A stretch of 64,000 bases of DNA, taken from positions 1-64,000 of the IMG/VR virus record IMGVR_UViG_3300028887_000085, one strand, 5' to 3'. The notes beneath the pieces are model-generated. The model was not told where the DNA came from, made no database searches, and saw only the letters and a list, made by a program, of their open reading frames with translations. The position numbers were made by a program, and so were the translations under genes. Position 1 is the first letter of the stretch, and every line of letters begins with the position of its first letter. Below are positions 20,512 through 44,459 of the stretch, one piece after another. Source of the stretch: a virus (taxonomy: Duplodnaviria > Caudoviricetes).

Positions 20512-20537
20512 GTCTCGCAAAAGGACGGATTGTAACC
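20512..20537 (-). promoter_or_regulatory. Putative phage-sigma promoter 1
   Basis: GGTTACA-N14-GAGAC, upstream of the recombinase. Confidence 0.7.
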
Positions 20538-20552
20538 GGCGGTTTGAAAAAA

Positions 20553-21020
20553 TCAATAGCCGTTTTGCTCCACACCGTAGACGGCCTGTTCGTGGGTGAA
20601 GCCCTCGTACTCCAACTGCTCGATCAGGCCGGAGCGGGAGAAGCCCATATCCAGATCCAGATATCGCTCGGCAGATATGACGGCCTGCTCTTTCCAGTCG
20701 GCACCGCAATTCTTGACGGCGTATTCCGCTTCGGATTTGGTATATCCCTCATATTCAAGCTGGTCTATGAGTCCGGAACGGGAGAAGCCAATGTTCGCCT
20801 TTAGGTAGGATTTCGCGCTTTTGAGCGCGTTCTGCTCGCCCATGGTGGCGGATGACGTGGGGGAGGGCTTCACCGTGGGGCGGGGCGTTGACGGGGAAGA
20901 AGTGGATTTGGGGGCGGCGGTGTAGGAAGAATAGCTTCTTCCGGAGGAAGACACGCCGCAGGCAGAGGACAAAAGGACGAGCAACAGAGCGCAGAGAGCG
21001 ACGGAAACAAACTTTTTCAT
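20553..21020 (-). CDS. ltp: Ltp-family lipoprotein (superinfection exclusion)
   Basis: Lipobox LSSAC; two repeats of FSRSGLI.QLEYEG. Confidence 0.85.
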   Translation of the reverse strand: MKKFVSVALCALLLVLLSSACGVSSSGRSYSSYTAAPKSTSSPSTPRPTVKPSPTSSATMGEQNALKSAKSYLKANIGFSRSGLIDQLEYEGYTKSEAEYAVKNCGADWKEQAVISAERYLDLDMGFSRSGLIEQLEYEGFTHEQAVYGVEQNGY

Positions 21021-21142
21021 TGGTGATTCTCCTTTCGTTTTTTCATTTTCGACAGGGATTATTCCAAGTACAGGTTGGAATGTTTGGGGGCGATGGAGGA
21101 AGTACCGAGGGTGGCGGTGGACGGAACCTTGCTGCCCGCAGA

Positions 21143-21204
21143 CTCCCTCAGTCGCCTCCGGCGACAGCTCCCTCCCGGAGGGAGCCAAAGACGGGGGACG
21201 GGGG
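21143..21204. repeat. REP-like palindromic element
   Basis: CCCTCAGTCGCCTCCGGCGACAGCTCCCTCCCGGAGGGAGCC followed by GGGACGGGGG. Confidence 0.6.
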
Positions 21205-21570
21205 TCAGGCGTTGGGAGTGGGCCAGTCCAGGGGCTTCCAGCAGACGATGCCCATACGGTCTTCCGTGATGGTATTGAGATAGCGCCACTCCAGGATGCC
21301 CTTCGGGCCAGACTCATAGACATAGAAGCCCTCTCTATCGAAGTTGACGGGGACAAGGCACTCGTCGAGGGTCATTCCTACGCGGGGAGGGGCTTCCTGC
21401 TCGGACTGATCGCCGGGATAGAAGTAGGTGCAGAGAGTGTAGGCCCGGTCCAGGGGGTCGGCGAAGAGGTCTTCCGGCGCGGGGAAATCCCCGGCGTAGG
21501 ACAGGACGAGGACTTCCTCCCCGCTTTCGGGCTTTGTCGATTCCATAACGCTGATCCAGCCGTTGTTCAT
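21205..21570 (-). CDS. DUF551-like hypothetical protein
   Basis: WISV...P...EVLV...WKPL. Confidence 0.5.
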   Translation of the reverse strand: MNNGWISVMESTKPESGEEVLVLSYAGDFPAPEDLFADPLDRAYTLCTYFYPGDQSEQEAPPRVGMTLDECLVPVNFDREGFYVYESGPKGILEWRYLNTITEDRMGIVCWKPLDWPTPNA

Positions 21571-21624
21571 TTCATATATCCTTTCTTGTATGTAATTTGA
21601 GATTTTCGTTTTGGTATGATGATA

Positions 21625-21667
21625 GCAAATCCGGCGGGCATTGAGAAGTACCCGCCGGATTTTTTGT
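21625..21667. terminator. Intrinsic terminator-like hairpin
   Basis: AAATCCGGCGGG...CCCGCCGGATTT followed by a T-tract on the + strand. Confidence 0.5.
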
Positions 21668-21684
21668 TGCGCGAAAATTGGGGG

Positions 21685-21972
21685 TCAGTCGCAGTAGGGG
21701 AGGACGCGGGTGAAATGGTAGCCTCCTTGAATCTTGCGCAGGGAATAGTAACCGGCGAAATAATAGGCGGGGTCCCCCCATTTGTCGCCGCCGGGTTCCG
21801 TTCCCTTCCGGAAGTCATGTTCGTTGGGGATGCTCTTGCCGCAGAGATGCGCAAGGCACCACTCCACGGCCTCCGCTTCGCCTGCGTCGGTGAGCACGAC
21901 CCATTCGTTGTAGGTGTCGCCGTAGCGCCGGTACTGCCCGGCGTGGGTCTGAGTTGCGGTAAAGGTGGGCAT
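21685..21972 (-). CDS. Hypothetical protein
   Basis: 95 aa ORF in the co-directional cluster. Confidence 0.6.
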   Translation of the reverse strand: MPTFTATQTHAGQYRRYGDTYNEWVVLTDAGEAEAVEWCLAHLCGKSIPNEHDFRKGTEPGGDKWGDPAYYFAGYYSLRKIQGGYHFTRVLPYCD

Positions 21973-22383
21973 TTACAATTCCTCCTCGTCGTCATATGAA
22001 AGATTTATGCCGTCTTCATTGTAGAGGGTGTCCAGCATTTCCTGAAGCGTGATGCGCTTGTCGCGGATATCCATCAGGTATTCCATAGAGGCATCGTACA
22101 AGCGTTTTTTGTCCTCCGCCTCGAAGCCGAAACGGTCATGGAGGACGCGAAGAACGACCGCCCAGGTGGTCTTGTGGGTGTCGAAGGTGGCGCGGCGGGC
22201 GGTGATCTCCACGGCCTTGCGGAGCTGGAGTTCGAGGTCTACCAGTTCCTTGAGGGTCAGCTTCGCTTTCAGAGCGTTGCGGAGGTTTTCCGTGAGGCCG
22301 TCGGTGTAAACCGGATCGTAGGTCAGGGACTTCGGCTTGTGAGGCTTGCCGGAGCCGTGCTTGGCTTTTTTCGATTTCGGCAT
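21973..22383 (-). CDS. Hypothetical protein
   Basis: 136 aa; VLHDRFGF motif. Confidence 0.6.
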   Translation of the reverse strand: MPKSKKAKHGSGKPHKPKSLTYDPVYTDGLTENLRNALKAKLTLKELVDLELQLRKAVEITARRATFDTHKTTWAVVLRVLHDRFGFEAEDKKRLYDASMEYLMDIRDKRITLQEMLDTLYNEDGINLSYDDEEEL

Positions 22384-22386
22384 GGG

Positions 22387-22995: not shown

Positions 22996-25605
22996 GCGCC
23001 CACGTCCTTCCATCTGCAGCCGTCGCAGGCTCCCTTGTGGGCAAACTTGTAGTCTCCGCATTTTAGGCACAGTTCGTTCCGGCAGTCCTTGAGGTCACGG
23101 CGGCAATCGAAGAGTTCAACGCATAGCTGGCGGACGGCGGAGAGTGTACCGGGGAACTGCCGTTCAATTTCCAAAGCGTGATCTCCGGAGACGGCGGAAC
23201 AACGCTCCGCCACTTCTCTATCAAAGCGTTCAAAGCCAAGGGTTTGCATACTTATTCATCCTTCCGTTTTTTCAGGGCCGCCTCCGCTTCTTCGTAAGAC
23301 AGAAACAGATAGCGCGGGGATATGCCGATGTGTTCATAGGAGAACTTTTCTTCCCGTATCACGTTTTCAATCACGGGGTCCGGATAGCCACGGGAAACAA
23401 CGGCGGTGATGATATAGACGGTGGTACCAATGGGGCAGGGAAGTCTTAGCAGGAGGCCCTGTTCTTCAGCGTCCTCGTAGGCGGCGAGGCGGTCGATGTA
23501 GTTGGCGTGGTGGTTGACTACGGCGGCGTGTTCCCCGCGCCATTCAGTCAGTCGTTCCATGTTTTTCCTCCTCCGAAAAGATATGCAGGGTGGGTTCGGG
23601 TCTGCGCCACTCCTGCGGGGGCGCGTAGCCCATCAGCTTCTTGAAGTATTCGGCTGCCATGTACTGCGGGTACATCCCGCAAAGGGTGTTGTAAAGCTGT
23701 TCCGGGTCTCGCTTCTTCGACTGGCGGCCGGGGCGAAGAGACGGTTTATTCTTCGGCATCGGACACCTCCGTGTTGAGAAAGTCAAGCCAGCACTGGCGG
23801 CAATCCGAACACCTGTCGGGACGATATTCCTCAAACTTGTCCGGGCAGATGAACTTTTGGCTGAAATACTTTGCCAGTTCTTCCGGGGATTGGTTTTTGA
23901 ACCTCTCGTAAAGGGTCATGGTGAATCCTCCTCTGCCGGGATGATAGTGGGAGCGTAATCAAGAATTAGCCTTATTCCTCCAGTCGTATAGTCTTCCGGT
24001 GAAAGCTGTGCTATTTCGTTTTCTATCTTGTCCAGATCGACAAGCCTACCGTGAGGAACGGGGACTTCAACGGCTTCATAGCTACGCTTCCCTATCCCGT
24101 GACCGCAGAAGACAGAGCCATCGGAATAGATTGTCAAATGCAGTGGGTAGAGGTGTTCCGTTGGAAGATGAAGTTCCTTAATCAGTATGCTCATTGTTTA
24201 CCTCCTTGCTTCTTCCACGATGTCTTCCAGCAGCGCCAGCCGGGTCACAGGATCGAGCCAGCCCGCCTCGTCGCTGGTGCGCAGGTGGGCATTTCCGTCA
24301 ACGTCCCGCACGGTCTGCCGTTTCAGCAGCTTCGTGGCGTCCAGCACTCGGAATCTTTCCTCCTGCGCCCTGAGAAGCCGCTCGATGATGTCGGCGGATT
24401 CATTCAGCAGGGAGCGGGTGAACTGATTCCTCCGACGATCTACGGCGTAAAATTCGCGCAGGTCTTTGGCGAACTGTGCGGCGCAGGAAGTGAGTTCGTT
24501 GAAGTCGATGTTGTCAGGCATTGTCAGACCTCCCGCATATCTGCACCGCAGTTGGGGCAGAAGTTGTGATGTGCCTTATGCTCACTAACAAACCCGCACA
24601 AAGAGCAAGCCCACCAATTTTTCCCCGTTTTGGTTTTATGGGGTATCCACTCCCCGGTCTTGCGCTCCACCACATCGGCGGCGGGAACACTATCAATCAT
24701 GGCGGAAAATGTGCGGTTTATCGCCGGGGCATATTTCGGCTGAAACGCCTTATGAACATCTGACCTTTTCACATAGTCATCATTCATCGTCCTTCCCTCC
24801 CTTCAGCGCGGCTTCGGCTTCTTCACGGGTCGGGAACACATAGACGCCCCAGTCCTTCGCGCTGTAACACTCACTATAGCCTTGATATGAAGGGTCAACT
24901 TCGATAGTGTTTTCAATTCTGCCAATCTTGAAACCTATTACGGAGGAAGGATATACAGAGAGGAAATTAGCGCCTAAGCCGCATCGCAGGACATAAACCG
25001 TATCTCCAACCTTGCACGGCAGAATCACCAACCGTCCCTGTTCCTCTGCGTCCTCATAGGCTGCGAGCTTTTCCACCATATTAAACGTTGAAATCTCAAA
25101 CGGCTTCGCGCTACACGCTATCCCGTCAGCATTGCGTTTTGTCAGTCTCATTCGTCCTGCCCCCCGTCCATCTGTGTATTCTCGACTACGCGAACCCAGC
25201 CGTCCATATCAACCATTAATGGCATGACCCGAAATTTCCCCGTATGCATGTCCTGACGGCAGATTACGACATGACCATCGGGCTTCACGGCGATATAGTC
25301 TTTGGTCGTGGTGACGTACCACTTTTCGTCCTTGTTCATTCGTCCTGCCCTCCGATCTTATCTGCCGGGATGACCGTCGGCGCGTCCTCGATGTCAGACA
25401 ACCACACGCACCAATGGGGGTCATCGCACTTGTCCTCCAGTGCGTCAAGGTCTCCGAGCCGCCCGTGGTCGGGGACGGGAGTTACCAATCCTAAATCCAC
25501 GTATGGATTAGCCATGTCCTCGTAGTAGGCATGACCGTCAGACAAAACCGAGATTCTGTGGCCGAGTTGCGGAATCTGAGCGTTTGGAATATAGATGCCG
25601 CTCAT
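22992..25605 (-). other. Run of about 9-10 small coupled hypothetical phage ORFs
   Basis: Overlapping starts and stops: 22992-23249, 23252-23560, 23544-23759, 23916-24194, 24198-24521, 24524-24787, 24780-25151, 25148-25339, 25336-25605. Confidence 0.6.
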
Positions 25606-26210
25606 ACGGATACCTCCGGATACTTGAGCTTCTGCCCGCAGCAAAGACAGCAGTCGGGCATATCCCCGTAAGAATTGCAGACGATCTCCCCGCCGCAGAT
25701 TGGACAGGTCAGGCTGCCGTCGGTGTGCTCGACCACCATGCGGGTCAGATCCTTTTTCGGTTTTTCTTCCTCCTCCTTGTCGCCAAAGGCTGCAGCGGCG
25801 GCCTTGGCGAAGTTCTCTGCGGCCTGCTCCGCCGTCACGAAGCCGTAGTCGCTGGCGTCCGACGGTTTTTCTTTCGCCGCCTCTGCCGTCAGCCGGTCCA
25901 GCTCCATGACGGACATGACGGCGTAGTTCGCCAGGTCGATCAGGGTGTCCCGCAGGGATTCGTCCTTGACTTTGGAATCCCCGGCGCGGGAGAGCATCTT
26001 GAAGCGGTTCAGCTTATCCGACAGGCGGATGCGGGGCATCGCCCAGCCCTCTTCCAGGAAGGTCAGGTGGAAGCTGTCCCCGTAGTCATCGTTCTTCCGG
26101 GCGTAGAGGTTGGTCATGTACTCGCAGATCAGTTCGTGGTGAACGGTGTTATTTTTTAGGTTCATGCTGCTGAAATTGTCTTCGACATTCGCTTCGTAGA
26201 AAGTAGCCAT
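25602..26210 (-). CDS. DUF1599-like (nucleotide-modification-associated) protein with Zn ribbon
   Basis: YARKNDDYGDSF...RLSDKLNR...DTLIDLANYAVM; CPICG. Confidence 0.7.
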   Translation of the reverse strand: MATFYEANVEDNFSSMNLKNNTVHHELICEYMTNLYARKNDDYGDSFHLTFLEEGWAMPRIRLSDKLNRFKMLSRAGDSKVKDESLRDTLIDLANYAVMSVMELDRLTAEAAKEKPSDASDYGFVTAEQAAENFAKAAAAAFGDKEEEEKPKKDLTRMVVEHTDGSLTCPICGGEIVCNSYGDMPDCCLCCGQKLKYPEVSV

Positions 26211-26675: not shown

Positions 26676-27233
26676 TCAGGCGGTGGCGCGGGCCTTCGCG
26701 GCGCGGGGCTTCGTGCCGATGCGGTCCATGAGATCGGCGCAGAGAGTCTTGTAGACTTCCAGAGACGCCTCGGCGCGGGCAAGCTCCAGACGCAGGTCGG
26801 TATCGTCGGGATCGGCAAGGACGAGGGGCGTCGGATTTTTGCGGAGCGCCTGAAGCCCGGCGGCAACGGCGTCCACGGAGTCGGCCTGTTCAAAGGCCGG
26901 GAGACCGAGGGAAATGCGCAGGGCTTCGTCGATCAGCGCCATCTCCTTTGCGTTGCACACCGATCCGCCGTCGCCGAGGCGGCTCTTGTCCACGGAGGAA
27001 ATCTGCTCGCACAGGACGGTGGACTGCTTGCCGGTGGCGTGGACGACGACATGGGTGGGAAGATCGGACTTCGGGCGCGTGGTCATGTAGCAGACCTCCA
27101 CGGTGGAAGAGAAGCGGTTGTTCTGGTCGTTGGATACGATCACGGCGGGACGGCCAGACCACATTTCGCTTCCGGTCTCGGAATAGCTGGGGGCGACATA
27201 GTAGATTTCTCCGCGCTTGAATTCGGGCATCAT
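26676..27233 (-). CDS. PemK/MazF-family protein with C-terminal extension
   Basis: KRGEIYYV...GSE...RPAVIVSND..N...LCEQISSVDKSRL. Confidence 0.85.
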   Translation of the reverse strand: MMPEFKRGEIYYVAPSYSETGSEMWSGRPAVIVSNDQNNRFSSTVEVCYMTTRPKSDLPTHVVVHATGKQSTVLCEQISSVDKSRLGDGGSVCNAKEMALIDEALRISLGLPAFEQADSVDAVAAGLQALRKNPTPLVLADPDDTDLRLELARAEASLEVYKTLCADLMDRIGTKPRAAKARATA

Positions 27234-27385: not shown

Positions 27386-30300
27386 TCAGTCTTCGTCGAT
27401 GCGCTGCTCGATCAGGCGGTCTTCGTAGTCGAGCTGATCCCGGACGCTGGCGGCGGCACCCTCCGGCGTGTCGGGATAGGTGTCCCACGCGCCGCACTTG
27501 GGGCAGGCGATCTCGCTGAGCCAGCCCTGGATATCCCGCTCCGGCTTATCCGATGTGAATTTGTGGCCGCAGCAGCCGCAGAAATATTTGTAGCTCATTG
27601 TCATGCCTCCTCCTGGTTTGCCAGCTCGTCCGCCAGGTCTTCGAGCCAACGGTTAACATCCTCGGCGGTCATGTTGTCCCGGTCTTCGATCCCTCTCAGG
27701 GAATAGCTGCCGTCCTCATGCTCCACGATCTGGAGCGGGTCGCACTCGGAATACATCTGTGCGGCCTTGTCTGACAGCACAAGATTGGTCTTGGTGTTAC
27801 CATAAATATGCATTTTCATTCCTCCTTTTCCGCAAGGACGGTCATGTTCCAATTGATCCCGCCGTCGGTGTCCACGGAGCACTCCGCCCACTCCTGACCG
27901 CGAGTGTCGGCGTCGTATTGATTCAGGCGGCAGCGCCAGCCATATTGATCGCACAGACGGTCAATGGCATCCTCGGCGTTTTCTCCCCGCCGAATTACGG
28001 TTTTGCCATTGTAGGTGATCTTGTAACGGTTCATTTATGTATCCTCCTTTACATTCGGATGGGAGAGGAGGCGAACTTGCCGTAATCCAGCACAAGGCGG
28101 ACGGCCCTCTCTTCTTCCGGCTCCATCAGCACAGCCCCGGAGCGGAACCTCTCCCACACCAGACGGCTCAGGGCCAGACCGTCTCCCTTCAGGGGGTTTA
28201 TTACTCTCCCGACATCGAAGACGCTGCGCTCCACCAGATCATAGGGCTTGCCGTTTACCGTGATGTGGTGGATATACTCCACGGTCTTGCCGCCTTCGTC
28301 GGTGATCTCCTTTTTCTCCGTCGTCCATTCCACGCCCTTGAGAGCGCGTTCCCTGCGGGCTTCGTAGCGCTTCAGTTCTTCCACCCGGCGTTTTTCTTCC
28401 GCCGCCTCAGCGGCAGCTTCCGCCTCTGCGCGGCCTTTTTCCAGGCCGAGATAATACCCCTTCTCCTCGGCGCTGAGAATCCACGCCATGTTGTTCGTGG
28501 CCGGGAAGCAGCCGTCACTCTCCCGCCGGGGAAGATCGGCGCTGGTTATGTGCTTGAGCTCGGTGCTTTCTCCGACGCCGAAAAACATCTTGTCTCTGTA
28601 TTCGGCGGAGTAGCCGGATTTTTCTTCCTCCGAAAGGCGGCGACCGTCATGCAGAGAAACGGAAACCCAGCTCGGCTCCCATATCAGGCAGGTGTAGGTC
28701 TCGTGTTCCATTGTCATGCCTCCTTTTCTTTGAGATTATACGGTGCGGTGTCCGATAAAACGGACAGGGGGGCTGTCGTTCCCGTTCTTATATGTCTTCA
28801 ACAGGGGCGAAATGTAACCGGGGGACGGTTTTTTATTTTCCGACCAGGGTCAGGCCGTCGGGAAGGGGGTCGCGGGAAAGATCGCCCTGCCATGCGAAGT
28901 CGGAACCGAAGGCGCTTTGGACATGATAGAAGGTCGCGCCGGTGTCCACGCCGGATTCCCCGTCATAGGAAAAGCCGGTGACGATCCCCTTTGCGTCCAG
29001 CAGGGGGAGAAGCAGCCCGTCGCTGTTCGCCCACTCGATTTCGATGGGCGGGATCTCCCGCCAGCTCTTTCCGAGATAGCGCCGGAAAAAGCCGTCGCTG
29101 CGGTCGGTGAAGACGGCCACCAGCAGGCGGGGGTAGCGCATGGGGATTTTCTCTTTCGCTTTGTTCGCGTGGGTGAGCCGGGGATATTCCTCGGCAGATG
29201 CCACATAGAGATAGCGGGGTTTTTCTCCCAGGTCGATGTACTGCGGAGGGATTCCGGGGGAGAAGATCGGCATTGCCATGACGTAGCCGGGGGTGCGGTC
29301 CACCACTTCCTCCATGGGAAGGGCGCTGTTGTCGCAGATATACAGATCATAGTCCAGGACCGGCTGGCCCTGAGAATGAAGCTCGCGGATCAGGTTGAGA
29401 AGACTGCCCATATGTTCTCCTTTCGGGATTTTTATTTTTGAAATATCATATCATGACAGGGATGGAAAAGGAAGCGGCGGGGAAAATTTTCCGCCGCCGC
29501 TTTGTTCAGTCTTCCGACTTCGGGGCGGCGAGGATTTTGAAGGCCGCCTCCGCGACCTCCGTGTTCAGCATCTCCGGCTTGATCCAGGCGGAGAGGAAAT
29601 TCGTGTCGCCGTCCTTGATGTGTTCGTCGGCGATTTCTTCTAGCCAGTCGAGGAAGCATACCATATCTCCGAAGCATATTCCGCTTTCGCTGATGTTGCC
29701 AGCCTCGTCGGTGACGATCACGGAGCCGCAGGAAGACATAGAGACCAGCCAGCCGCCATTGTTGAATTGGAAATAATCCCAGGCGAGCTGCGCTTGCAGG
29801 GACATGTCTTCGGGTTTGGGAAGGGGAAAAGCGGTAAAGGTGATGTTCATGGTGTGTTCTCCTTTCAGCAGATTTCTTTGTAGCCGTACCAGTTACCGTC
29901 TTCAAGGAAGACGGACAGCGCGGGAAATCCATTCGACATGGCGGCTATGTATTCGGTTTCGATCACACGCAGGGTTTCTTTGGTGCGCTTTACGGTAACT
30001 TCGTCACCGCTGTGCAGCTTCTTCGCATCTCTAAGGCGCATAAAATCCTCCTTCAGCTTCATCCCAAGACACGACGTTTTTCAGGTGATCGTCCAGGTAA
30101 AGGTCGGTGTCTTCTACCTCGTCCGGAACAAAAATATAGAAAGCAGGGCCGATCTCCGGATAGATTTTGACTCTACGAAATTCTCTCATATTGTTCTCCT
30201 TTCAGTCGGTGATCTCGATGACGAAGTTCCAGGGGACGGCCATCCAGGTGCCGTCGGGAAGCTCGAAGTTGCACATGGTCTCCCCGCCGTTGTTCATTTC

Positions 30301-32671: not shown

Positions 32672-32697
32672 GTCTCGCAGCAGGACAAAATGTAACC
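32672..32697 (-). promoter_or_regulatory. Putative phage-sigma promoter 3
   Basis: GGTTACA-N14-GAGAC. Confidence 0.7.
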
Positions 32698-35115
32698 GGG
32701 GGATCAGATATATTTTTGTTCATCCCTCCTCTGAAAATTCTTCGTTTGCGACATCTCCCGCGAGCTGGAAGGCTTCGTGCGCGGCTTCTTCCAGCCGGTC
32801 AATGGTGCGGGTGGCGTAGGGGCATTTTTCTATGAGCGCGACGGCTTCTGCTTTGAGGATATCGTGGGCGAAGTCCAGCGCGTCCACGGCATCGTCCTCC
32901 GTCAGCAGCAGGGAAGCATAGCGGCTGACGATTTTCTGATAGGTTTCCTTTGACATGACCATGGGGTGATCCCTCCTTTATTATGCGGCGGATGTGGCCT
33001 CGACGTAGGCGGAATGGAAACGGAGCAGACGGTCAAGGGAACGGCGGGTGTCCTGCATCAGCCGCTTGTAACCCGCGTTTTCCTCCCGCACTTTCCGCCG
33101 GTACTTCCTGGGTACGGATTCCGGGTCCGTGTAGTTCATTGCATAGGACATGGCCGCATATTCGGCGCAGCCCTTTTCCAGCGACACCGCCTCCGTGAAC
33201 CAGGCGTCAAGCTTTTGGATCGCGGCGTCGTTCTGGAAGGGAAAGAGCCGGAACATTTTGCAGAGCTTTTTCCAGGCGGAAAGATCAAGACGGATGAGAC
33301 TGTCCAGGGAGATTTCTGCCCGGAAAGAAGCATCATTTCGGATAGATATAACATTCTCCATTTGCGCTACCTCCTTATGTATTTTTCCATGTACTTCATG
33401 CAGGGGTCGGTGACGGTGACAAGCGCCCGCTGCGCCCGGTAGTGTGTCTTCTCCGGGCAGCTCAGGATTTCCGCGTCGGCGTAGTTCCGCTTTGCCCAGC
33501 GGCACAGCCGGTCACATTCCTGATACAGTGTGTCCGCTTTGGTATAGGGCGTGGCCTTGGTGATCCAGATGGTGTAACCGGGGGAGGCGCGTTCATGCAC
33601 CGGCCCCAGGGCAAACTCGGAGCGGGACATAAGCTCTTGGACGTATTGAGGGATCGTCATTTTCAGTCCTCCTCTCCCAGCTTGCAAAGCTTCGTGTTCA
33701 GGTCGCGCAGCTCGCAATAGTGCCGGATGATGGCCTCCATGGCCTCCGGGCACTCCGCGAGATAGGCGCGGGTCTTCGTCACGGCTTCGATCTTGCCGAG
33801 AACGGCGTCGATCAGCAGGGCCAGCTCCCGCGCCGTCAGGGTCACGCGGATGTTTTCTTTGCGCATTGTCAGTCCTCCTCGTCTTTATCTTCTCCATATT
33901 CGGCGGTGTAGGTGTCGAATTTGAGTATTGCGATATCGTCATCGTTGGCGTCCGTTACGTCCAGGGTGCAGCCGTCGTAGCCGTTGCGCTCCGGATCGTA
34001 TAAGTTTTCCTCGTAAAGATAGGCGGCGTATTCTTCGGCATCGTCCGAGGATTCGGCATTTACGATGATGCGGTTGGTGTAGGTGACGGTGAATGTCACG
34101 ACAAAGGGCTTTTTCATATGTTCGTATTCTCCTTTCCGAAATTATTCGGCAACGGCGGTGAGGTTCCACGCATTGCCAAGCTCGTAGTACAGGCCGTACT
34201 TTTTGAAGATCGCTCGCAGTTCTTCCTCCACCCTCCAAGACGGTTCTCCATAGTTCAGGGCATCATATAGCGGGCCTTCAAAGGTCATGGTGAGGATGTC
34301 CCCGGCGTACTCGGTGATGCGGCGGGGGTCTTCGTTCTCCAGGACGATCAGGTTGTGAGGGTCATTGTAGCAGTATCGACCGTGACGGTCATCGGTGGAG
34401 AACGCTTTGCCGTTGAAGTAGATGGTGGTGTCCACCCACATATCCCGGTCCAGCAGGAATTTGCGGAGCTCTCTGGCGAGCTTTTCGATATTCGCTCTGG
34501 TCGGTATCTTTGCCATGTTCATTCCTCCTCGATTCTCTTGATCTCCGCTTCCGCGCCGTCGTAGTCATCTTCGCTGAGACAGCCGCAGAAGGTATGGAAG
34601 TTGCAGTCTTCCAGCAGGTCTTCGATCTTCTCCCGCTGGATATCTTCCCGGTGGAGGCGCATAAGCTCCCGCAGGTCTTCCAGCGAGAAGCCCCAGCGGA
34701 TGGTCCGGGAAATGTCGCTGTAGGTCATGGTTTCCAGGGCTTTCTCCCAGTCTTCACAGATTTCTTCTTCCGTCATGGGTTCGGGAAGGTCACCGACTTC
34801 CAGGCTGGAGCAGTAGCCGTCAACATAGTACGTCACTTCCAGCTTTGGGAATTTCTGATGGATCATGTACTCGGTTGCGCGATAGTAAGCGCCGATGATG
34901 GAGTCGGTGATTTCATTGAGCCTTCCGATATCTTCAAATTCCTCCTTTGCGTAGTCGTTCATGTCATCAATCTCGCGGATGGAAAATCCCAGCTTTTCCA
35001 TGGTGTCCTCACACTCTTTTGCGACGCGCTCAATGGTTTCGGCATAAATTCCGAGAAATTCACAGGTAGAAATCATGCGTGTTCCTCCTATCGTTTTTTG
35101 TTTTGCGCCTTATAA

Positions 35116-35141
35116 GTCTCAGAGGAGCGGTTTTTGTAACC
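35116..35141 (-). promoter_or_regulatory. Putative phage-sigma promoter 4
   Basis: GGTTACA-N14-GAGAC. Confidence 0.7.
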
Positions 35142-36281: not shown

Positions 36282-36307
36282 GTCTCCGCGGGGCGTGGAT
36301 TGTAACC
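36282..36307 (-). promoter_or_regulatory. Putative phage-sigma promoter 5
   Basis: GGTTACA-N14-GAGAC. Confidence 0.7.
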
Positions 36308-37094
36308 GCCCCATAAAAATTTCTTCAGGCCCTTTTTTCGTTTGCCTTTGCGGTGCGGTAGCCGGTGCCATGCTTCGTTTCCGCGCTGACGATCTTCCCG
36401 GAGGAAAGCAAATCCTCAAAGATGGAATGCACATAGCTGTAACCCGCGCCGTTGTCCTGATAGCGTTCAGCGCCCCGGCGGGGAATGTGGTGCTTCTCCG
36501 AAACGCGTCGGACGGGGCCGCTGAAGAAATCGTTGCTCACGATATACAGGTTGCTTCGCTTTGTCTTGAATTCCGTCAAAAGCTCTGCGGAAATTTCTTC
36601 CCGCCGGTCCTTCAGGATGTCCAGATATTCCTCGTTGCTGATGGGGAAGACCTCATGGTACACGTCCACCCAGCGGACAGATACGGTCTCGGCGGCGTCC
36701 AGGGCTTCCGCAATCGGCTTGACCTTCGCTTTCGCCACGGTGCCGGAAATGTTGTGCGATTCTGCGTACAGGTGTTCCATGGGGTAGCCCTCTGTGCGGC
36801 CTCCGATACCTTCGGAGATTCCGAAGTCGGCCACGATTTTTTTCACCTCCGCATGGAAGCGCTCGCGGTCGGCGGGATCGGTGAAGCTGCCGTACATTCC
36901 CGCTCCTTTGGTGTCGATGCGGAAATAGACCTGGATAAAGCTGTCAGCGGGGAAGGGGCCGTCAGGGTTCCAGTTGTCGGTCATGTGGCCGTCCGGGCCG
37001 TACTGCGGGCCGTTCATGTTGTCGTGGTATTTGATCTTTTCGCTCATGGTGATCTCCTTTCAAGTTACCGGCTTGCGCCGTTGCTGCTTATATG

Positions 37095-37120
37095 GTCTCG
37101 CTCAGGCCGGTTTTGTAACC
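37095..37120 (-). promoter_or_regulatory. Putative phage-sigma promoter 6
   Basis: GGTTACA-N14-GAGAC. Confidence 0.7.
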
Positions 37121-37832: not shown

Positions 37833-38357
37833 TCATGCGTCCTCCCATTCCGTTTCGTTGAACTTCTGAATGAACTCCTGGAAGGAAAGCTCCTTCCAAT
37901 AGTTCACGGTTTTGCTGCGCCACTTCCCGGCCTTGTACTTGAAGACGGTGATCCCCACGGTCCCAAATTGCACATAGCAAGAACTGGAAATGTCCATCGT
38001 TTCGCCGTGGCCGCTGACCTTCACGCGATACTGCGCAGACTCCCAATTCAAATCGAGGATGCGTTTGTCGTTTGCCGTCATATCAGAATCCCTCCCGATC
38101 ATCTGTTTTTCAAGGTCCGCAATATCCTCCGGAGACAGCCATTCCGGCGGTACAGGCAGGGAAGCATAGACTTCCCGCATGAGGTCGATCTGCTTGCGTT
38201 CGTCCTGCGTCCAAAGGTGCTGCGCATACCGTGCCCCGTAGCCCAAGTAATACAAGCAATCCAGGCGCAGCCGATCCAGGAACATATAGCGGAATTTCAC
38301 GTCGCGCTTTTCCAGGTCATACGCTTGCATCAAGGTCGTTTTTTCGGTGCGATCCAT
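37833..38357 (-). CDS. LPD11 (large polyvalent protein domain 11)-like protein
   Basis: FRYMFLDRLRLDCLYYLGYG...HLW...PEWLSPEDI. Confidence 0.7.
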   Translation of the reverse strand: MDRTEKTTLMQAYDLEKRDVKFRYMFLDRLRLDCLYYLGYGARYAQHLWTQDERKQIDLMREVYASLPVPPEWLSPEDIADLEKQMIGRDSDMTANDKRILDLNWESAQYRVKVSGHGETMDISSSCYVQFGTVGITVFKYKAGKWRSKTVNYWKELSFQEFIQKFNETEWEDA

Positions 38358-38819: not shown

Positions 38820-39263
38820 TCAGGCCGCCTCCTTTCGGCTTTCCGGGGTGAAGCCCTGGTCCTCGATGTTCTTCAGCCAGTGCCAGAGAAAATCATCCAG
38901 GGACGTTCTCAGGGACGGAGAATAAAGCCGCTGGCCGTTCCGGGTCCGGTAGACCTCTTGATACAGCCCCATGTAGTCGTTCCGAAAGTTCAGGGGATGG
39001 ATGACGCCCTTCTCCCGGTCCACGGAAAACTCGATGCAGGGATCGGCCATCAGGTCGCCGTTCTGCTCGCCGTAGTGGGCCATGTAGTAGACCGGCAGGC
39101 CCCGATAGTCCGTGTATCCCAGGGATTCCATGGACAGGTCCATATATCCCGCAGCGGTGAAGCGCAGCCAGGACGTTCCGTCGTCGCAGGTCTTCTCGTC
39201 CAGTGCCTTCAGGTAGGGCAGAAGCATCTTGTAATTGGTCGTTCCGTGTTTCGTTGCTCTCAT
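38820..39263 (-). CDS. DUF6908-like protein
   Basis: MAHYGEQNGDLMADP...WLKNIEDQGF. Confidence 0.65.
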   Translation of the reverse strand: MRATKHGTTNYKMLLPYLKALDEKTCDDGTSWLRFTAAGYMDLSMESLGYTDYRGLPVYYMAHYGEQNGDLMADPCIEFSVDREKGVIHPLNFRNDYMGLYQEVYRTRNGQRLYSPSLRTSLDDFLWHWLKNIEDQGFTPESRKEAA

Positions 39264-39343: not shown

Positions 39344-39369
39344 GTCTCGAAGCGGCCTCGATTGTAACC
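39344..39369 (-). promoter_or_regulatory. Putative phage-sigma promoter 7
   Basis: GGTTACA-N14-GAGAC. Confidence 0.7.
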
Positions 39370-39398
39370 GGTCCACAAAATTTTAACCGCCGATCATG

Positions 39399-39779
39399 TC
39401 ACGCCACGTCGCTTTTGGACGCCTCGTCCCGGTAAAGCTCAATGGCCCGCAGGACAAACGCCTTGACCTCCTTTTTGTTGACGTTCATTTTCTCCGTGTT
39501 CGTTTCCACCGTGTAACCGTAGCTGTTCCGCTTCCAGGTGACGCCCTCCGCATTGCCGCAGATATCGGTGTAGATGCGGCTCAGGGCCGTCGTCGTCAGG
39601 TCGAAGTGCTCAAAGGTGATCTCCGCCTCGCCGCCGGTCCTCAGGATCTTCAGGGCGTCGTTTATCAGCTTGTCCACGGATTCATAGTAGTCGATCTCAT
39701 AGAGTTTTTGACCTTCCAGCTTGCCGAAGAATCCGTTTGCCCTCGCCTTGAAAGAATAGCTCATGAAGAATGCGCTCAT
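39399..39779 (-). CDS. Hypothetical protein
   Basis: 126 aa; RBS GGAGG. Confidence 0.6.
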   Translation of the reverse strand: MSAFFMSYSFKARANGFFGKLEGQKLYEIDYYESVDKLINDALKILRTGGEAEITFEHFDLTTTALSRIYTDICGNAEGVTWKRNSYGYTVETNTEKMNVNKKEVKAFVLRAIELYRDEASKSDVA

Positions 39780-39817: not shown

Positions 39818-39843
39818 GTCTCGATAAAGCACGGATTGTAACC
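39818..39843 (-). promoter_or_regulatory. Putative phage-sigma promoter 8
   Basis: GGTTACA-N14-GAGAC. Confidence 0.7.
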
Positions 39844-40301: not shown

Positions 40302-40631
40302 TTATGCAACCACCTCCAGCAGGTCGGAGAAGCGCTCCAGCATTTCCGCCTTGTTGGCCTCGTAAACCTTCAGGGCCTGCTCCTCCGCTTTTTTGCTCTT
40401 GCGGGCGCACTCCACCACGCACTTTTTCCAGCCGGAAAAAGCGGCGTAGCTCTCCATGGTCACGCCGTAGTCCGTCGTACTCCGCTCCACCGGGGAAACG
40501 CTCACATAGTAGCCGCGAGCCTCGGTCCTGCCGGTAAAGTAGTTCATGCCGCCCAGGGAATAGTACAGCTCGCACTTCAGGAAGTGGCTGGGCTTGTTGG
40601 TGTTGATGTACTCTTTCTTGATCTGCTGCAT
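40302..40631 (-). CDS. Hypothetical protein
   Basis: YYSLGGMNYFTG...RGYYVSVSPVER. Confidence 0.6.
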   Translation of the reverse strand: MQQIKKEYINTNKPSHFLKCELYYSLGGMNYFTGRTEARGYYVSVSPVERSTTDYGVTMESYAAFSGWKKCVVECARKSKKAEEQALKVYEANKAEMLERFSDLLEVVA

Positions 40632-40687: not shown

Positions 40688-40713
40688 GTCTCGCAGGATC
40701 TCCTTTTGTAACC
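40688..40713 (-). promoter_or_regulatory. Putative phage-sigma promoter 9
   Basis: GGTTACA-N14-GAGAC. Confidence 0.7.
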
Positions 40714-40783: not shown

Positions 40784-41269
40784 TCAATTCTCCTGCATGG
40801 CGTAATACAGCGGCTTGCGCTGAGAGGCGTCCAGGACCTCGCTGCACCGGCGCATGGCCTCCTTTGCCTGCTTCAGCGCCCTGACCGTTGCGCCGATCTG
40901 CTCGTCGCTCGCGTCATCCGGCAGCTCGTCCACGGCGTTCACCAGCCTGTTTTTCTCCTTGTGGATGTAGAAGCTCGCCACACGGCACACGCCCACGGCA
41001 TCCCGGTAGGCCGCCGCCAGCTCGTCGAAGTCCGCCTGCAGCTTGTCCCGTTCGTCCATGGTGTCCAGGCTGATCTTTGCCACGTCCGCCGCTTTTTTCC
41101 TGGCCTCCTCCAGGTCGCGCACCGGCGAATTGCCGAAGTCGTTATCGATATTGTCCCGGCAGATGTCCACGATCCCGGCGAATGTCAGGGCGATGTAGCT
41201 GTCCTCCCCGGCGGATTGAATCAGGTTTTCGATCTTGTCCAGGATCTTGCGCTCTTCAGCTTTTGTCAT
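40784..41269 (-). CDS. Hypothetical coiled-coil protein
   Basis: 161 aa; RBS GGAGG. Confidence 0.6.
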   Translation of the reverse strand: MTKAEERKILDKIENLIQSAGEDSYIALTFAGIVDICRDNIDNDFGNSPVRDLEEARKKAADVAKISLDTMDERDKLQADFDELAAAYRDAVGVCRVASFYIHKEKNRLVNAVDELPDDASDEQIGATVRALKQAKEAMRRCSEVLDASQRKPLYYAMQEN

Positions 41270-41314: not shown

Positions 41315-41340
41315 GTCTCGCAGTCAAGCAAATTGTAACC
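41315..41340 (-). promoter_or_regulatory. Putative phage-sigma promoter 10
   Basis: GGTTACA-N14-GAGAC. Confidence 0.7.
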
Positions 41341-41379: not shown

Positions 41380-41937
41380 TTATCCGGCGATGGCCGCATA
41401 AGCCATCCCGCCGCGCCGCCGGTCGTCTTCCTCCGCGCCCAGGCGTTCCGAGCCGAATTGCAGCCTGATCCTGTCCATGCTCCACGCCTTTTTGCCCTTG
41501 TAGCTCATGGCGGCATCCTCCGGGAAGTGCCAGGACCATTTTTCCTTCCCCTTGCTCCACTTGCAGCCCAGGGCCTTCAGCCGGTCCTTGTGCCTGCGCG
41601 TTTCGCCGCCGATCCAGAGCCAGCGCCCGCAAAGCTCAACCTCCAGCCCGTCCAGCTTGAAAAGCTCCGCGCAGATGTTGATGAAGTCCTCCGGCGTCTC
41701 TTTCGTCGCCGTCTCCGCCCTGTAGGTCTTCGGGCCGTCGGGCCGAGAGCTCTTGTGGATGTCCTTCAGCTCGTCGAACAGGATCGTATATTCGGCGTTG
41801 ATCTCCTGCATTTTCACCTTGTCGCCGCCCCGGTCAGGATGATTTTCAAGGGCCAGCTTGCGGTAGATGCTCTTCAGGTCTTCCACGTTGTCGGGAACGG
41901 GAACGATCCAGCGGATTTTCTGTTTTGCGAATTTCAT
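41380..41937 (-). CDS. J-domain (DnaJ-like) protein of mobile elements
   Basis: YRKLALENHPDRGGD (HPD motif); ELCGRWLWIGG. Confidence 0.8.
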   Translation of the reverse strand: MKFAKQKIRWIVPVPDNVEDLKSIYRKLALENHPDRGGDKVKMQEINAEYTILFDELKDIHKSSRPDGPKTYRAETATKETPEDFINICAELFKLDGLEVELCGRWLWIGGETRRHKDRLKALGCKWSKGKEKWSWHFPEDAAMSYKGKKAWSMDRIRLQFGSERLGAEEDDRRRGGMAYAAIAG

Positions 41938-42018: not shown

Positions 42019-42044
42019 GTCTCGATGACCGGCGGATTGTAACC
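42019..42044 (-). promoter_or_regulatory. Putative phage-sigma promoter 11
   Basis: GGTTACA-N14-GAGAC. Confidence 0.7.
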
Positions 42045-42111: not shown

Positions 42112-42384
42112 TCAAGCTGTTTCTTTCTCTGCCTCCTCCCGGAAGTCCTCCCACTCGTCCCAGGCGGCCCGGCAGCCGTCCTCGTCCTTGTAGGGAACGA
42201 ATTTCACCAGGTAATTGCTTGCCCAGGGGTTCAGGTAATGCTCATAGACGAAAGCCCAGCCCCGGCGGCAGGCTACCACGAAATTATCCAGCAGGCAGCC
42301 TTCCACGGCCTCCACGGTCTCGCCGTCGTTCTGCGTGTACCAGATATTCAGGCGTTTTTCGCCGGTGATTTGAAAAACCGTCAT
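42112..42384 (-). CDS. Hypothetical protein
   Basis: MTVFQITGEK...EGCLLDN...EHYLNPWAS. Confidence 0.6.
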   Translation of the reverse strand: MTVFQITGEKRLNIWYTQNDGETVEAVEGCLLDNFVVACRRGWAFVYEHYLNPWASNYLVKFVPYKDEDGCRAAWDEWEDFREEAEKETA

Positions 42385-42542
42385 TTCGTCGCCTCCGCAA
42401 TCTCCAGCTCCAGCGCCAGAGCCCGCAGCGCCGCAACTCGCCCGTGATTGCTGCCCCGTCTGCATTTTTCCAGGTCAGCCTCCGCCGCTCGCAGGTGCTT
42501 TTTGATGATCTTTTCCATTTCTTCAACCGTGAGATTTTTCAT
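42381..42542 (-). CDS. Small hypothetical protein
   Basis: RBS AAAGGAGG; MKNLTVEEMEKIIKKHL..., 53 aa. Confidence 0.5.
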   Translation of the reverse strand: MKNLTVEEMEKIIKKHLRAAEADLEKCRRGSNHGRVAALRALALELEIAEATK

Positions 42543-42611
42543 GTTTGCCTCCTTTAATGTTTCAAGCCCCAGGGCGTTTGCCCCAGGGCTTGTGATTTGC
42601 TTGTCTTTTTG

Positions 42612-42800
42612 GTCTCGCTGGATTGTGTTTTGTAACCGGCGGAAGAAATTTATTTTTCGTCGCCGTCGGCACCGTTCGCCTGGACGCTTGCCTTTAAGGT
42701 CTCGCAGGCGGCCCGATTGTAACCGGCGGTGAAAAATTTTTCGCGGTTTGTTCTGCCGCCGCCAGAATTATAAGGTCTCACTGTTCTGGATTTTGTAACC
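42612..42800 (-). promoter_or_regulatory. Putative phage-sigma promoters 12-14 (tandem triplet)
   Basis: GGTTACA-N14-GAGAC at 42612-42637, 42699-42724 and 42775-42800. Confidence 0.7.
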
Positions 42801-42811
42801 TGGCCGGAAAA

Positions 42812-43117
42812 TTATTTTTCCTCCGGCCCGGCCCCGTCCATGGACCCGGCGGCCTCCAGATCGTCAGCCGCAGCAGCACCGGCCCCGGCGGCCCGGCCCC
42901 GGCCAGGCTTGCGCGGGCCGAATTCGCCATGCAATCCGAGATCAAGACCGGCGGCCCGGCCCAGGACGGCAGCGGCCCAGGCATTCACGGAACTGAAGCC
43001 CGCAGCCGCAGCAGCGGCCCGCAGCTTTTCCCGTGATCCCGCCGGGAACTGTAAGAGGATGCGGTCATAATTCCTCTTTTTATAGGATTCATTCGCTTTG
43101 CTTTTCGCCGTCGCCAT
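42812..43117 (-). CDS. Ribbon-helix-helix (Arc/CopG-like) DNA-binding protein
   Basis: NESYKKRNYDRILLQFPAGSREKLRAAA...SVNAW. Confidence 0.6.
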   Translation of the reverse strand: MATAKSKANESYKKRNYDRILLQFPAGSREKLRAAAAAAGFSSVNAWAAAVLGRAAGLDLGLHGEFGPRKPGRGRAAGAGAAAADDLEAAGSMDGAGPEEK

Positions 43118-43146
43118 TCGTTTTTCACCTCCTGGCATACATTATA

Positions 43147-43172
43147 GTCTCGCAGCGGGCCGAAATGTAACC
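43147..43172 (-). promoter_or_regulatory. Putative phage-sigma promoter 15 (RHH gene)
   Basis: GGTTACA-N14-GAGAC about 30 nt above the RHH start. Confidence 0.7.
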
Positions 43173-43216
43173 CATGATTTGATATTTTCTAAAGATATTG
43201 ATGATTTAACTAAATC

Positions 43217-43270
43217 CGGTATATACCGAACAGTAAACGGCTTGACAAATCGGCATATACCGATTATAAT
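43217..43270 (+). promoter_or_regulatory. Consensus SigA promoter with two palindromic operators
   Basis: TTGACA(43242)-17-TATAAT(43265); CGGTATATACCG at 43217-43228 and CGGCATATACCG at 43251-43262. Confidence 0.8.
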
Positions 43271-43349
43271 AGTTGACAAGATGAGGCCCCGCAGAGGACC
43301 CCCTGACCCGCCCCGGCGGGCAGGCACATTTGAAAGGAGACCCCCGAAA

Positions 43350-44459
43350 ATGACGAAATCCGAAATGATGATCCGCGCCCACGCCTGGACCCGTGAAACC
43401 GTCGCCGCCTACCCCGGCAGCAGCTACCGCGCCACCCTGGCCGCCGCCCTGCACGAGCTTTGGAAGGACATCCGCAGCGAGGACGCCCGCAGCGCCGCCG
43501 CCGTCCGCCTGACCGTTGCCGCCGTCCTCCAGGCCGCCGAGGACGCCGTGACCCGGCGCAGCGCCGACGCCGACGCCGCCGCCCGTGCATGCTGCGCGGA
43601 GCAGCAGACCGGCAGCGAGCAGCAGCAGCAGGAGCAGGAACCGGCCACCCTGGCCGAATTCCTCCAGCAGCCCGGAGAAGTACAGCTTGAAACCCTCCGC
43701 AAGTTTGCCGCCCGATGCCCCGGCTACGCCGCCCGGCAGGTCAAAAAGACCACCGACCCCGAGACCGGCGAGACCGTCACCGTCCCGGCCCCGGCAGCTT
43801 GGGCCGACTGGATGATCCCCCGCAGCAAAGGCGGGCTTGAGCTTGAACCCTGGGCCGTTGCCGTTGACACCATCGCCGCCGAAGCCTGGACGCGCCTGGC
43901 AACCTCCGAGGACGACGGAAACCCGCTCGCGTGGATTCTCGCCCGCGCCTGCCGCGCCGCCTGCGTGAGGCTTTCCAAGGTATACCGTGACGCGCCGAAC
44001 AACCGCAGCCGCAGCAAGCGGCAGGACGGCAGCGGTACTATTATCGACGCCGTTTCCCTTGACGATCCCGATTACAGCGCCGCCGCCCATTTCCCCGGCC
44101 CGGAATCCGCCGCCGTCACCCGTGAAGCCATCCGCCAGGCCGCCAACGACCCCCGAGACTTTGCCGTCCTGGACCTGCGCAGCCAGGGACAGACCCTGCA
44201 GCAGATCGCCGCCCGCCTGGGCATCAGCCATCCCGCCGTCCTCAAGCGCCTCCGCCGCATGAAGGAACGCATGGAGGACGCCAAGACGGAGCAGGCCGCC
44301 AACGACCTCGACGCCGCAGTCATGGCCGCAGCCGGTCAGAGCTACCGCCCCCGGAAGAGCTGGAGGCCCGACAACGCCAGCAGCAGCACCGGCGGCAGGG
44401 AGAACGCGCAGCAGCCCCGCAGCGCCGCCGCCACCGTCAGCACATGGGCCGGGAAGTAA
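43350..44459 (+). CDS. ECF-like sigma-70 factor with N- and C-terminal extensions
   Basis: RBS GAAAGGAG; region-2-like VDTIAAEAWTRL...LAWILARACR; VSLDD linker; region-4 HTH QGQTLQQIAARLGISHPAVLKRLRRMK. Confidence 0.65.
   Translation: MTKSEMMIRAHAWTRETVAAYPGSSYRATLAAALHELWKDIRSEDARSAAAVRLTVAAVLQAAEDAVTRRSADADAAARACCAEQQTGSEQQQQEQEPATLAEFLQQPGEVQLETLRKFAARCPGYAARQVKKTTDPETGETVTVPAPAAWADWMIPRSKGGLELEPWAVAVDTIAAEAWTRLATSEDDGNPLAWILARACRAACVRLSKVYRDAPNNRSRSKRQDGSGTIIDAVSLDDPDYSAAAHFPGPESAAVTREAIRQAANDPRDFAVLDLRSQGQTLQQIAARLGISHPAVLKRLRRMKERMEDAKTEQAANDLDAAVMAAAGQSYRPRKSWRPDNASSSTGGRENAQQPRSAAATVSTWAGK

Follow-up and report, generated by a model that had tools for sequence, protein, structure and literature searches.

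A divergent phage protein of sigma2-sigma4 architecture and the 15 bipartite promoters that it is predicted to read along the accessory arm of a large temperate phage

Our analysis of a 64-kb stretch of viral DNA (the window, which is the first 64 kb of the 111,110-bp IMG/VR virus record IMGVR_UViG_3300028887_000085) points to a phage-encoded sigma factor that serves a set of promoters of its own. The source is a roughly 100-kb temperate phage from a metagenome, with two integrases and a cI/cro pair. The candidate sigma factor, a 369-residue protein referred to here as P0001, is encoded rightward at 43350..44459, and its gene stands at the head of a leftward arm in which one bipartite sequence, GGTTACA and GAGAC separated by 14 nt, recurs 15 times. 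Judging by sequence comparison and structural modelling, we put the probability that P0001 is the sigma factor reading these 15 promoters at about 0.68.

From the features described below we infer polymerase binding, the assignment of domains to promoter elements, the start sites and the timing of this circuit. Host polymerase carrying the housekeeping sigma would transcribe the P0001 gene from a perfect TTGACA-17-TATAAT promoter, probably gated by a repressor acting through palindromes in and beside it. P0001 would then join the host core polymerase and initiate at the 15 phage-specific promoters, which face away from its own gene. At each of them the A/T tract would act as an UP-like (upstream) element, GGTTACA as the -35 element read by the sigma4 helix-turn-helix (HTH), GAGAC, 14 nt downstream, as the -10 element read by sigma2, and the A/T-rich TATAAG block as the region of melting and start. 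Together the promoters would express about 50 leftward accessory genes, among them those for an integrase, a MazF-like toxin and DUF932, LPD11, DUF6908 and DnaJ-domain proteins.

The motif stands far above chance. A search of the window for GGTTACA-N14-GAGAC with at most one mismatch gave 16 matches, all on the minus strand, against a chance expectation of 0.13 and a maximum of 1 in 100 shuffles. Fourteen are exact (20512, 32672, 35116, 36282, 37095, 39344, 39818, 40688, 41315, 42019, 42612, 42699, 42775 and 43147) and one, at 28794, has AAGAC for GAGAC; the spacer is 14 nt in all 15. The sixteenth match, at 33048 (GGACAC), lies within an open reading frame (ORF), has neither an A/T tract nor a TATAA, and is probably a chance occurrence and not a member of the set. 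The plus strand of the whole record holds no copy, and the single further copy in the record, at 110661, lies where the stretch 13.8-20.96 kb is duplicated exactly, at 103.9-111.1 kb. In an unbiased count of all 6-mer/gap/5-mer pairs the motif ranked first in the genome, with no comparable runner-up, while a scan of IMG/VR for CGGTTACAA-N13-GAGAC gave, among the matches listed, single chance-level matches per contig. An earlier note on this DNA had described 15 minus-strand copies in one orientation with an invariant spacer, that at 28794 being a variant, and had placed an A/T tract upstream and a TATA or TAA block after the motif; the pattern search with shuffles and our reading of the flanks agree on every one of these points. 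The note had further set the array ahead of about 55 leftward genes; leftward genes do follow it, and their number came out at about 49-50 ORFs instead. The copies, with the genes that each is predicted to drive, are as follows.

43147..43172, minus strand: promoter copy 1, with TATAAT next; stands back to back with the sigma gene and drives ORF 42812-43117
42775..42800, minus strand: promoter copy 2; first of three tandem copies
42699..42724, minus strand: promoter copy 3; tandem
42612..42637, minus strand: promoter copy 4; tandem, followed by ORFs 42381-42542 and 42112-42465
42019..42044, minus strand: promoter copy 5; drives the DnaJ-domain gene 41380-41937
41315..41340, minus strand: promoter copy 6; drives 40784-41269
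40688..40713, minus strand: promoter copy 7; drives 40302-40631 and two further ORFs
39818..39843, minus strand: promoter copy 8; drives 39399-39779
39344..39369, minus strand: promoter copy 9; drives DUF6908, LPD11 and other genes
37095..37120, minus strand: promoter copy 10; drives 36325-37047
36282..36307, minus strand: promoter copy 11; drives four small ORFs
35116..35141, minus strand: promoter copy 12; drives 34519-35076 and six further ORFs
32672..32697, minus strand: promoter copy 13; drives the DUF932 gene
28794..28819, minus strand: promoter copy 14 (AAGAC variant); precedes about 16 ORFs, including PemK/MazF-like and DUF1599 genes
20512..20537, minus strand: promoter copy 15; drives the tyrosine integrase gene 19452-20375

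The sites share the anatomy of promoters. Read in the direction of the leftward genes, each consists of an A/T tract, a short GC clamp, GGTTACA(A), the 14-nt spacer, GAGAC and an A/T block. The tract is of the AnTn type (consensus aAAAtaatTTt) and lies about 5-18 nt upstream, the spacer is variable in sequence and ends in (t)GC, and in 14 of the 15 copies a TATAAG, TATAAA or TTAAAG block follows 0-2 nt past GAGAC. The distance from 7-mer to pentamer is constant, while that to the TATAAG block differs by up to 2 nt from copy to copy. Wherever a gene lies directly downstream, a ribosome-binding site (RBS) and start codon are found 29-146 nt past GAGAC. Three of the copies (42775, 42699 and 42612) form a tandem group with intervals of 76 and 87 bp that contain no ORF, and relatives have two tandem copies at the matching position, the upstream one without the TATAAG block; such tandem copies may represent promoter stacking or short-RNA units.

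The A/T block usually terminates in G or A, not T, and a true TATAAT is present in two copies. Housekeeping sigmas need the final T of the -10 element (the -7 T); its absence from the TATAAG consensus therefore disfavours reading by the host sigma-A. We reject a direct reading of GGTTACA/TATAAG by sigma-A on account of this missing T and of the 19-22 nt between the -35-like element and TATAAG, which is too long for sigma-A. A scan of 24.6-44.6 kb for sigma-A-type consensus promoters gave 12 weak matches where 8.6 are expected, and the single strong one is that of the sigma gene itself.

P0001 is a divergent protein whose folds and remote homologues are those of sigma factors. Its parts are listed here with the kind of evidence for each, AF2 standing for AlphaFold2.

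43350..44459, plus strand: P0001 gene, 369 aa, predicted atypical sigma factor like those of the extracytoplasmic function (ECF) group (translation, profiles, models)
43350-43610, plus strand: N-terminal helical hairpin, residues 1-87 (AF2 model)
43635-43988, plus strand: sigma2-like domain with a beta-hairpin insert, residues 96-213 (AF2 model)
44079-44297, plus strand: sigma4-like four-helix HTH domain, residues 244-316 (AF2 model)

In the model a linker of about 30 residues (214-243) joins the two domains, with no sigma3 and no region 1.1, and the tail after the HTH is disordered; within this tail, residues 330-345 (nt 44337-44384) carry an invariant W-x-P-D-N-A-S-S. The N-terminal hairpin (MTKSEMMxRAHxxTR...YRATLAAALRxxW) occurs alone in other proteins too (N-terminus-only HMMER matches; phrog_12732). 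The full AlphaFold2 model, built from the homologue alignment, has a mean confidence score (pLDDT) of 86, and its Foldseek match list consists almost wholly of sigma factors. In exhaustive structural alignment, residues 243-320 gave Z scores of 8.4 with SigH region 4 (3mzy), 7.4 with SigL, 7.3 with CnrH and 6.5 with sigma-E region 4 on -35 DNA, the sigma region 4 structures overall falling at Z 6-8.4 against this C-terminal domain. Modelled alone, residues 96-235 reached a pLDDT of 90.8, and sigma domain 2 accounts for 17 of the 18 best matches of the sigma2 part among 48,161 chains, at Z 5.3-6.5 (SigB 6.5, with a root-mean-square deviation of 2.8 over 82 aa; SigC 6.2; sigma-70 5.8; sigma-E 5.4). 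Foldseek with this sigma2 model alone gave no more than weak matches to ribosomal protein S7 (E 0.05, TM score 0.25), and we regard them as noise.

Homology searches agree with the models. P0001 has 43 close homologues, all metagenomic and often on contigs of 80-101 kb, and HMMER against 1.8 billion representatives found 130 relatives, many of which have about 240 aa and match residues 170-310; a search of 185,579 species genomes found none, and searches of metagenome contigs and of viral contigs added one short locus and one locus, respectively. The remote homologue P0074 passes the Pfam model Sigma70_ECF (1.4e-7; 32 bits against a cut-off of 21.1), and four homologues match Sigma70_r4_2 at up to 2.6e-7. 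A profile of close and remote homologues (A2) matches E. coli sigma-E (1or7) at E 2.4e-7 over chain residues 45-186, CnrH at 3.9e-7, SigH at 2.9e-5 and SigW at 1.6e-3, and in each case the alignment starts at the second helix of sigma2 and extends through all of sigma4. In the Atlas, the neighbours of P0001 are viral and Bacillota clusters of Sigma70_ECF and r4_2. Because profile, both folds, domain order and Atlas neighbours agree, each with a modest score, we accept P0001 as a predicted divergent sigma factor of ECF-like sigma2-sigma4 architecture with family-specific additions.

The HTH domain also admits another role for the protein, as a sigma-like activator or co-factor that binds GGTTACA (perhaps also GAGAC) and recruits the host sigma-A holoenzyme to TATAAG. 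The domain scores equally against activators of the LuxR/NarL type (NarL and RhlR; E 1e-4 to 2e-7) and against sigma region 4, and the TATAA-like block after the sites, a true TATAAT in two cases, would offer sigma-A a target. LuxR/GerE-type HTH activators combine a C-terminal four-helix HTH with a receiver or ligand-binding domain and have no sigma2 domain; the sigma2 fold upstream of the HTH does not fit such an activator, and the conservation of that domain likewise speaks against a co-factor. The geometry of the sites does so as well: TATAAG shifts relative to the 7-mer by 0-2 nt inside this phage and stands anywhere from 25 to 29 nt from it when relatives are compared, the interval between 7-mer and pentamer being fixed throughout, and the consensus TATAAG/TATAGG lacks the T that housekeeping sigmas are known to need. 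We consider recruitment of sigma-A by P0001 improbable, and favour P0001 itself as the sigma factor.

The association between protein and motif is conserved in related phages. We read 12 related contigs, in eight of them including the promoter region of the homologue. In all 12 the homologue adjoins a divergent array of the same geometry, consisting of an A/T tract, a 7-mer, N14, a 5-mer and a TATAA-like block. The most distant relative examined, P0044 (38% identity), lies beside 20 copies of GGAATAT-N14-GCATGG in 9.8 kb, where 0.01 are expected, and in a related complete record (G001) the sites are confined to the arm that diverges from the sigma homologue gene. The 7-mers fall into four classes, each paired with its own version of the sigma4 recognition helix:

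GGTTACA: helix S/T-HPA-V/I-L/I-KRL, in the window, L001, L027 and L031
GGTTGCA: helix T/S-RQ-A/G-VEK, in L002, L011, L012, L013, L015 and L016
GGTAATA: helix SQGAVARRL, in L014 and L028
GGAATAT: helix TQGFISKRI, in L149

When the 7-mer class was forecast from the helix before the DNA was read, the forecast was right in three of three relatives (L027, L028 and L031). The pentamer is uniform in the window (GAGAC), L013 (GCCGC-like), L002 (GTTAC/ATTAC), L014 and L028 (GCGCT) and L149 (GCATG). From linkage and covariation we infer that the sites are P0001's own targets.

This diversity also bears on whether a host alternative sigma reads the motifs, the phage protein being unrelated to them. The bipartite form with a rigid spacer does resemble bacterial ECF promoters in general. 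Close relatives with the same gene order nevertheless use four 7-mers and many pentamers, as fits a phage-borne reader that evolves together with its sites, and the search of species genomes found no relative of the protein. Among the alternatives we rank this one last, as a most improbable account.

Two sites in the array of L012, at 4208 and 5066 on the minus strand, read GGTTACA/GAGAC inside an array that is otherwise GGTTGCA/GTCAC, and they resemble window copies 11 and 10. This resemblance, seen in the sequences, points to import of whole promoter-gene cassettes between phages of different sigma classes. It also fits an account in which the sites are not promoters and serve instead as oriented protein-binding sites, such as roadblocks for a repressor, or as linkers for recombination between cassettes. 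The stoperators of Cluster A mycobacteriophages (phage L5 being an example) are many, asymmetric and in one orientation, and the immunity repressor bound to them blocks elongation; the window sites, too, are many, asymmetric and intergenic, with a single orientation relative to transcription, and in L012 cassettes appear to move with their own motif type. A roadblock, however, gives no account of an anatomy made up of UP-like, -35-like and -10-like elements, A/T block, leader and RBS, and it would leave the arm without any promoters. The fold of the protein beside the array is that of a sigma factor and not of a repressor, the repeat in the cI-like repressor region is another one, and cassette exchange would be expected as a by-product of repeated promoters. 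We regard roadblocks or linkers as very unlikely, and return to the sites as promoters for P0001.

The control region of the sigma gene indicates how the host could express it and what might restrain it. The features concerned are these.

43242..43270, plus strand: sigma-A-type promoter TTGACA-17-TATAAT of the sigma gene, 12/12 match
43217-43228, no strand assigned: palindrome CGGTATATACCG, candidate operator, with a near copy in the promoter spacer
43251-43262, no strand assigned: the near copy CGGCATATACCG, candidate operator, inside the promoter spacer
44496..44518, no strand assigned: bidirectional terminator-like hairpin directly 3' of the sigma gene

The promoter is the only perfect TTGACA-17-TATAAT in the 111-kb record, and a perfect or near-perfect promoter of this type precedes the homologue in most of the eight relatives read there. 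With this promoter before it and a terminator after it, the sigma gene appears to be a one-gene unit. Neither the palindrome nor its near copy occurs elsewhere in the record, and GGTATATACC is likewise confined to this control region. The promoters of the relatives (cTTGACA-17-TATAAT) have a phage-specific palindrome within the spacer, so that different palindromes occupy the matching place. The cI-like (60176-60916) and cro-like (61097-61300) genes flank a different repeat, ATAGAAAnnTTTCTAT, and these differing operator sequences would fit a sigma circuit separate from cI/cro, as the earlier note had proposed. No motif copy lies upstream of the sigma gene, hence there is no sign of positive autoregulation; no anti-sigma factor was recognised among the neighbouring genes, and the leader of the gene folds no better than shuffles (z -0.97). 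At the first promoter (43147) the A/T palindrome is missing, and a block, ATCAATATCTTTAGAAAATATCAAATCATG, stands there instead (window 43173-43241); this block is kept in three motif classes out of four, L149 being the exception, beside phage-specific palindromes of the TATATA type. A further protein probably regulates this divergent control region, with ORF 42812-43117 as the obvious candidate. On the other side of the gene, the roughly 850 bp at 44520-45360 are GC-rich and ORF-poor, with imperfect repeats of the CAGCGCCGCAGC type, and most relatives have a gap of similar size 3' of the homologue.

As to the divergent gene, the earlier note had seen region-2-like and region-4 HTH features of a sigma factor behind a perfect SigA promoter. 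Profile, AlphaFold2 models and structural matches converge on the same description of 43350-44459, with a sigma2-like domain at residues 96-213 and a sigma4-like one at 244-316, and the promoter proved to be a 12/12 match, unique in the record and conserved in relatives. The co-occurrence of motif and sigma homologue that the note had raised was found in the 12 relatives, which keep the homologue beside an array of the same geometry with a 7-mer that covaries with the helix.

Several observations weigh against P0001 as the reader of the sites. P0001 itself passes no Pfam sigma model and gives only sub-threshold HTH matches, the best sigma match being Sigma70_r4 at 15.8 bits against a cut-off of 24.1, with none for region 2. 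The signal of profile A2 is partly transitive, coming through the remote homologues included in it. Foldseek with the full model returned nothing at E <= 1e-3 and with the sigma2 model alone did not find the sigma fold, and Z scores of 5-8 can arise by chance between helical bundles. The covariation of helix and 7-mer, being confounded by phylogeny and comprising about three independent changes, lends support short of proof. L011, L012, L015 and L016 have mixed pentamers (GTCGC, GCCGC, ATTAC and GTTAC in L011; GAGTC and GTTAC in L015), P0005 and P0014 have the same loop before the last sigma2 helix and yet go with AAGAT and GCCGC, respectively, and no one-to-one code between sigma2 residues and pentamer emerged. 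Because of these mixed pentamers, GAGAC is assigned to the -10 element with less assurance than GGTTACA to the -35 element. Covariation, finally, does not tell P0001 from a second sigma factor of the same phage, P0167, because the region-4 helix of P0167 differs between phages too.

P0167 is a canonical sigma factor of 185 aa, encoded outside the window at 66436-66990 of the record on the plus strand (locus L019 1369-1926). It clearly matches Pfam Sigma70_r2 (1.8e-13) and PHROG sigma families (1e-27), and is conserved in G001 with 40% identity. The motifs could be promoters read by P0167, with P0001 otherwise employed, for example as a regulator of the divergent control region; among the six P0167 homologues found, the region-4 helices differ between phages of motif classes A and B, as such a reading would have it. 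The P0167 gene, however, lies 23 kb away in a cro-side operon, between RuvC-like and RecT-like genes (in another phage the homologue stands between DUF1351 and RecT genes, downstream of a cI/cro pair). Because of this position among recombination and replication genes, the usual place of a late-gene activator, P0167 is probably a late-gene sigma; a gap listing of 44-104 kb showed nothing repeated that could be a distinct late-promoter motif for it. We prefer P0001 as the reader because it is its homologues, and not those of P0167, that invariably stand directly beside the arrays; because its two-domain, ECF-like architecture better suits a rigid bipartite site; because the motif is absent from the remaining genome, the presumed field of P0167; and because otherwise P0001, despite its sigma fold and the strongest host promoter of the genome, would have neither targets nor function. 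Reading of the array by P0167 is hence an unlikely option in our judgement.

The predicted architecture of P0001, sigma2-linker-sigma4 without sigma3, is that of ECF sigma factors such as sigma-E of E. coli, SigW, SigX and SigM of B. subtilis and CnrH of C. metallidurans, and the window sites share with ECF promoters the bipartite form and rigid spacer. SigW and SigX promoters have 22-23 nt from the start of one element to the start of the other; the 21 nt of the window sites fall 1-2 nt below this value. Unlike ECF sigmas, P0001 begins with 95 extra residues of helical structure, carries a beta-hairpin inserted into sigma2 and ends in a conserved tail; it passes no Pfam sigma model, no anti-sigma factor or autoregulatory motif copy was recognised for it, and its predicted regulon consists of phage accessory genes. 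Among phage proteins of the sigma family that redirect host polymerase, as P0001 is predicted to do, are T4 gp55 and SPO1 gp28 and gp33-34, and T4 gp55 (7d7d_F) is among the structural matches of the sigma2 part (Z 6.1-6.2). T4 gp55 is without sigma4; the one element that it recognises, TATAAATA, is of the -10 type, and its activator is the sliding clamp. The T4 and SPO1 factors govern the middle and late cascade of lytic phages, in contrast to the accessory arm predicted for P0001. PeSL (promoter-early stem-loop) repeats of T4-type phages are promoter units that precede small accessory genes and can also act as recombination points. Arrays of the kind seen in the window resemble them as repeated promoter units with gene cassettes, with foreign-motif cassettes in the L012 array; PeSL use host sigma-70, whereas the window sites are predicted to use a phage sigma. 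The nearest functional precedent, likened here by description, is gp36 of phiEco32. It too is remotely related to sigma factors, its N-terminal domain being sigma2-like and its C-terminal one sigma4-like; it replaces the host sigma on the host core polymerase and reads phage-specific middle and late promoters (PMC12276001). That phage is a lytic coliphage, and gp36 recognises AATGTA, an element with its centre at -11.5, and depends on gp79 as co-factor, whereas the window phage is temperate, its predicted regulon is an accessory arm, a strong 7-mer of the -35 type marks its sites and nothing like gp79 was recognised as a partner. SigN (ZpdN) of the B. subtilis plasmid pBS32 is reported to be a sigma on a prophage-like mobile element that activates the element's own genes (PMC6751061), and P0001 is likened to it by that description, as a predicted sigma that a mobile element carries for its own genes.

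The arm that the promoters would serve runs from 18923 to 43138 on the minus strand, and its 49-50 or so ORFs are mostly small. Eleven promoter copies lie within its first 8 kb; the remaining ones precede longer operons. Most of the ORFs have no PHROG or Pfam match; those with a family assignment, listed here, are by predicted family accessory in type.

41380-41937, minus strand: DnaJ-domain protein gene, behind promoter copy 5
38820-39263, minus strand: DUF6908 gene, behind promoter copy 9
37833-38357, minus strand: LPD11 gene, behind promoter copy 9
Start probably 32552, end 31590, minus strand: DUF932 gene; start inferred from the RBS and a 320-aa homologue
26676-27233, minus strand: PemK/MazF-like gene, in the operon of promoter copy 14
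25602-26210, minus strand: DUF1599 gene, in the operon of promoter copy 14
19452-20375, minus strand: tyrosine integrase gene, behind the last promoter, copy 15

The PemK/MazF-like toxin domain (7e-23) makes part of a 185-aa protein, and no antitoxin was recognised. Of the two tyrosine recombinases, both on the minus strand, one (19452-20375) lies behind the last of the predicted phage-sigma promoters and the other (58210-59241) beside the cI-like repressor. Downstream of the integrase operon, three 54-bp repeats stand in tandem at 18740-18900 on the minus strand with a hairpin-forming GTCATTGCGAGGCCGAAGGCCGTGGCAATCCG, and two further repeats of this type are found at about 90.0 and 90.97 kb of the record. 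An Rfam scan of 18-46 kb and a megablast of 42-46 kb against the phage collection each gave zero matches. The exact duplicate mentioned above repeats window positions 13800-20961 at 103900-111110 of the record (7.1 kb) and contains a tail-fibre-like gene with a peptidase M14 domain, the integrase gene and promoter copy 15; it may have arisen in assembly or be a genuine long direct repeat. The first 13.8 kb of the window, with the capsid and other structural genes, have no similarity to the remainder of the record.

Phage sigma factors with promoters of their own have been textbook knowledge since SPO1 and T4. What is new here is a family without annotation or Pfam assignment, found so far in metagenomes and in none of the species genomes searched; a predicted switch in large temperate phages that is aimed at a 24-kb accessory arm and not at middle or late genes; and the apparent diversification of this family into several promoter specificities with the geometry kept rigid. 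We speculate, tentatively and with more doubt than confidence, that the P0001 family comprises mutually orthogonal pairs of phage sigma and promoter, with at least four -35 classes and at least six -10-type pentamers, and that promoter-plus-gene cassettes are traded among gut phages. If so, an acquired accessory or counter-defence gene would be expressed only when its promoter matches the resident sigma, a lock-and-key control operating beside a second sigma that handles the late genes. The circuit, if real, would allow promoters and early accessory operons of uncultured gut phages to be annotated, and the family would provide a natural series for the re-coding of sigma4 and sigma2 specificity as well as candidate orthogonal sigma/promoter pairs for engineering in Bacillota.

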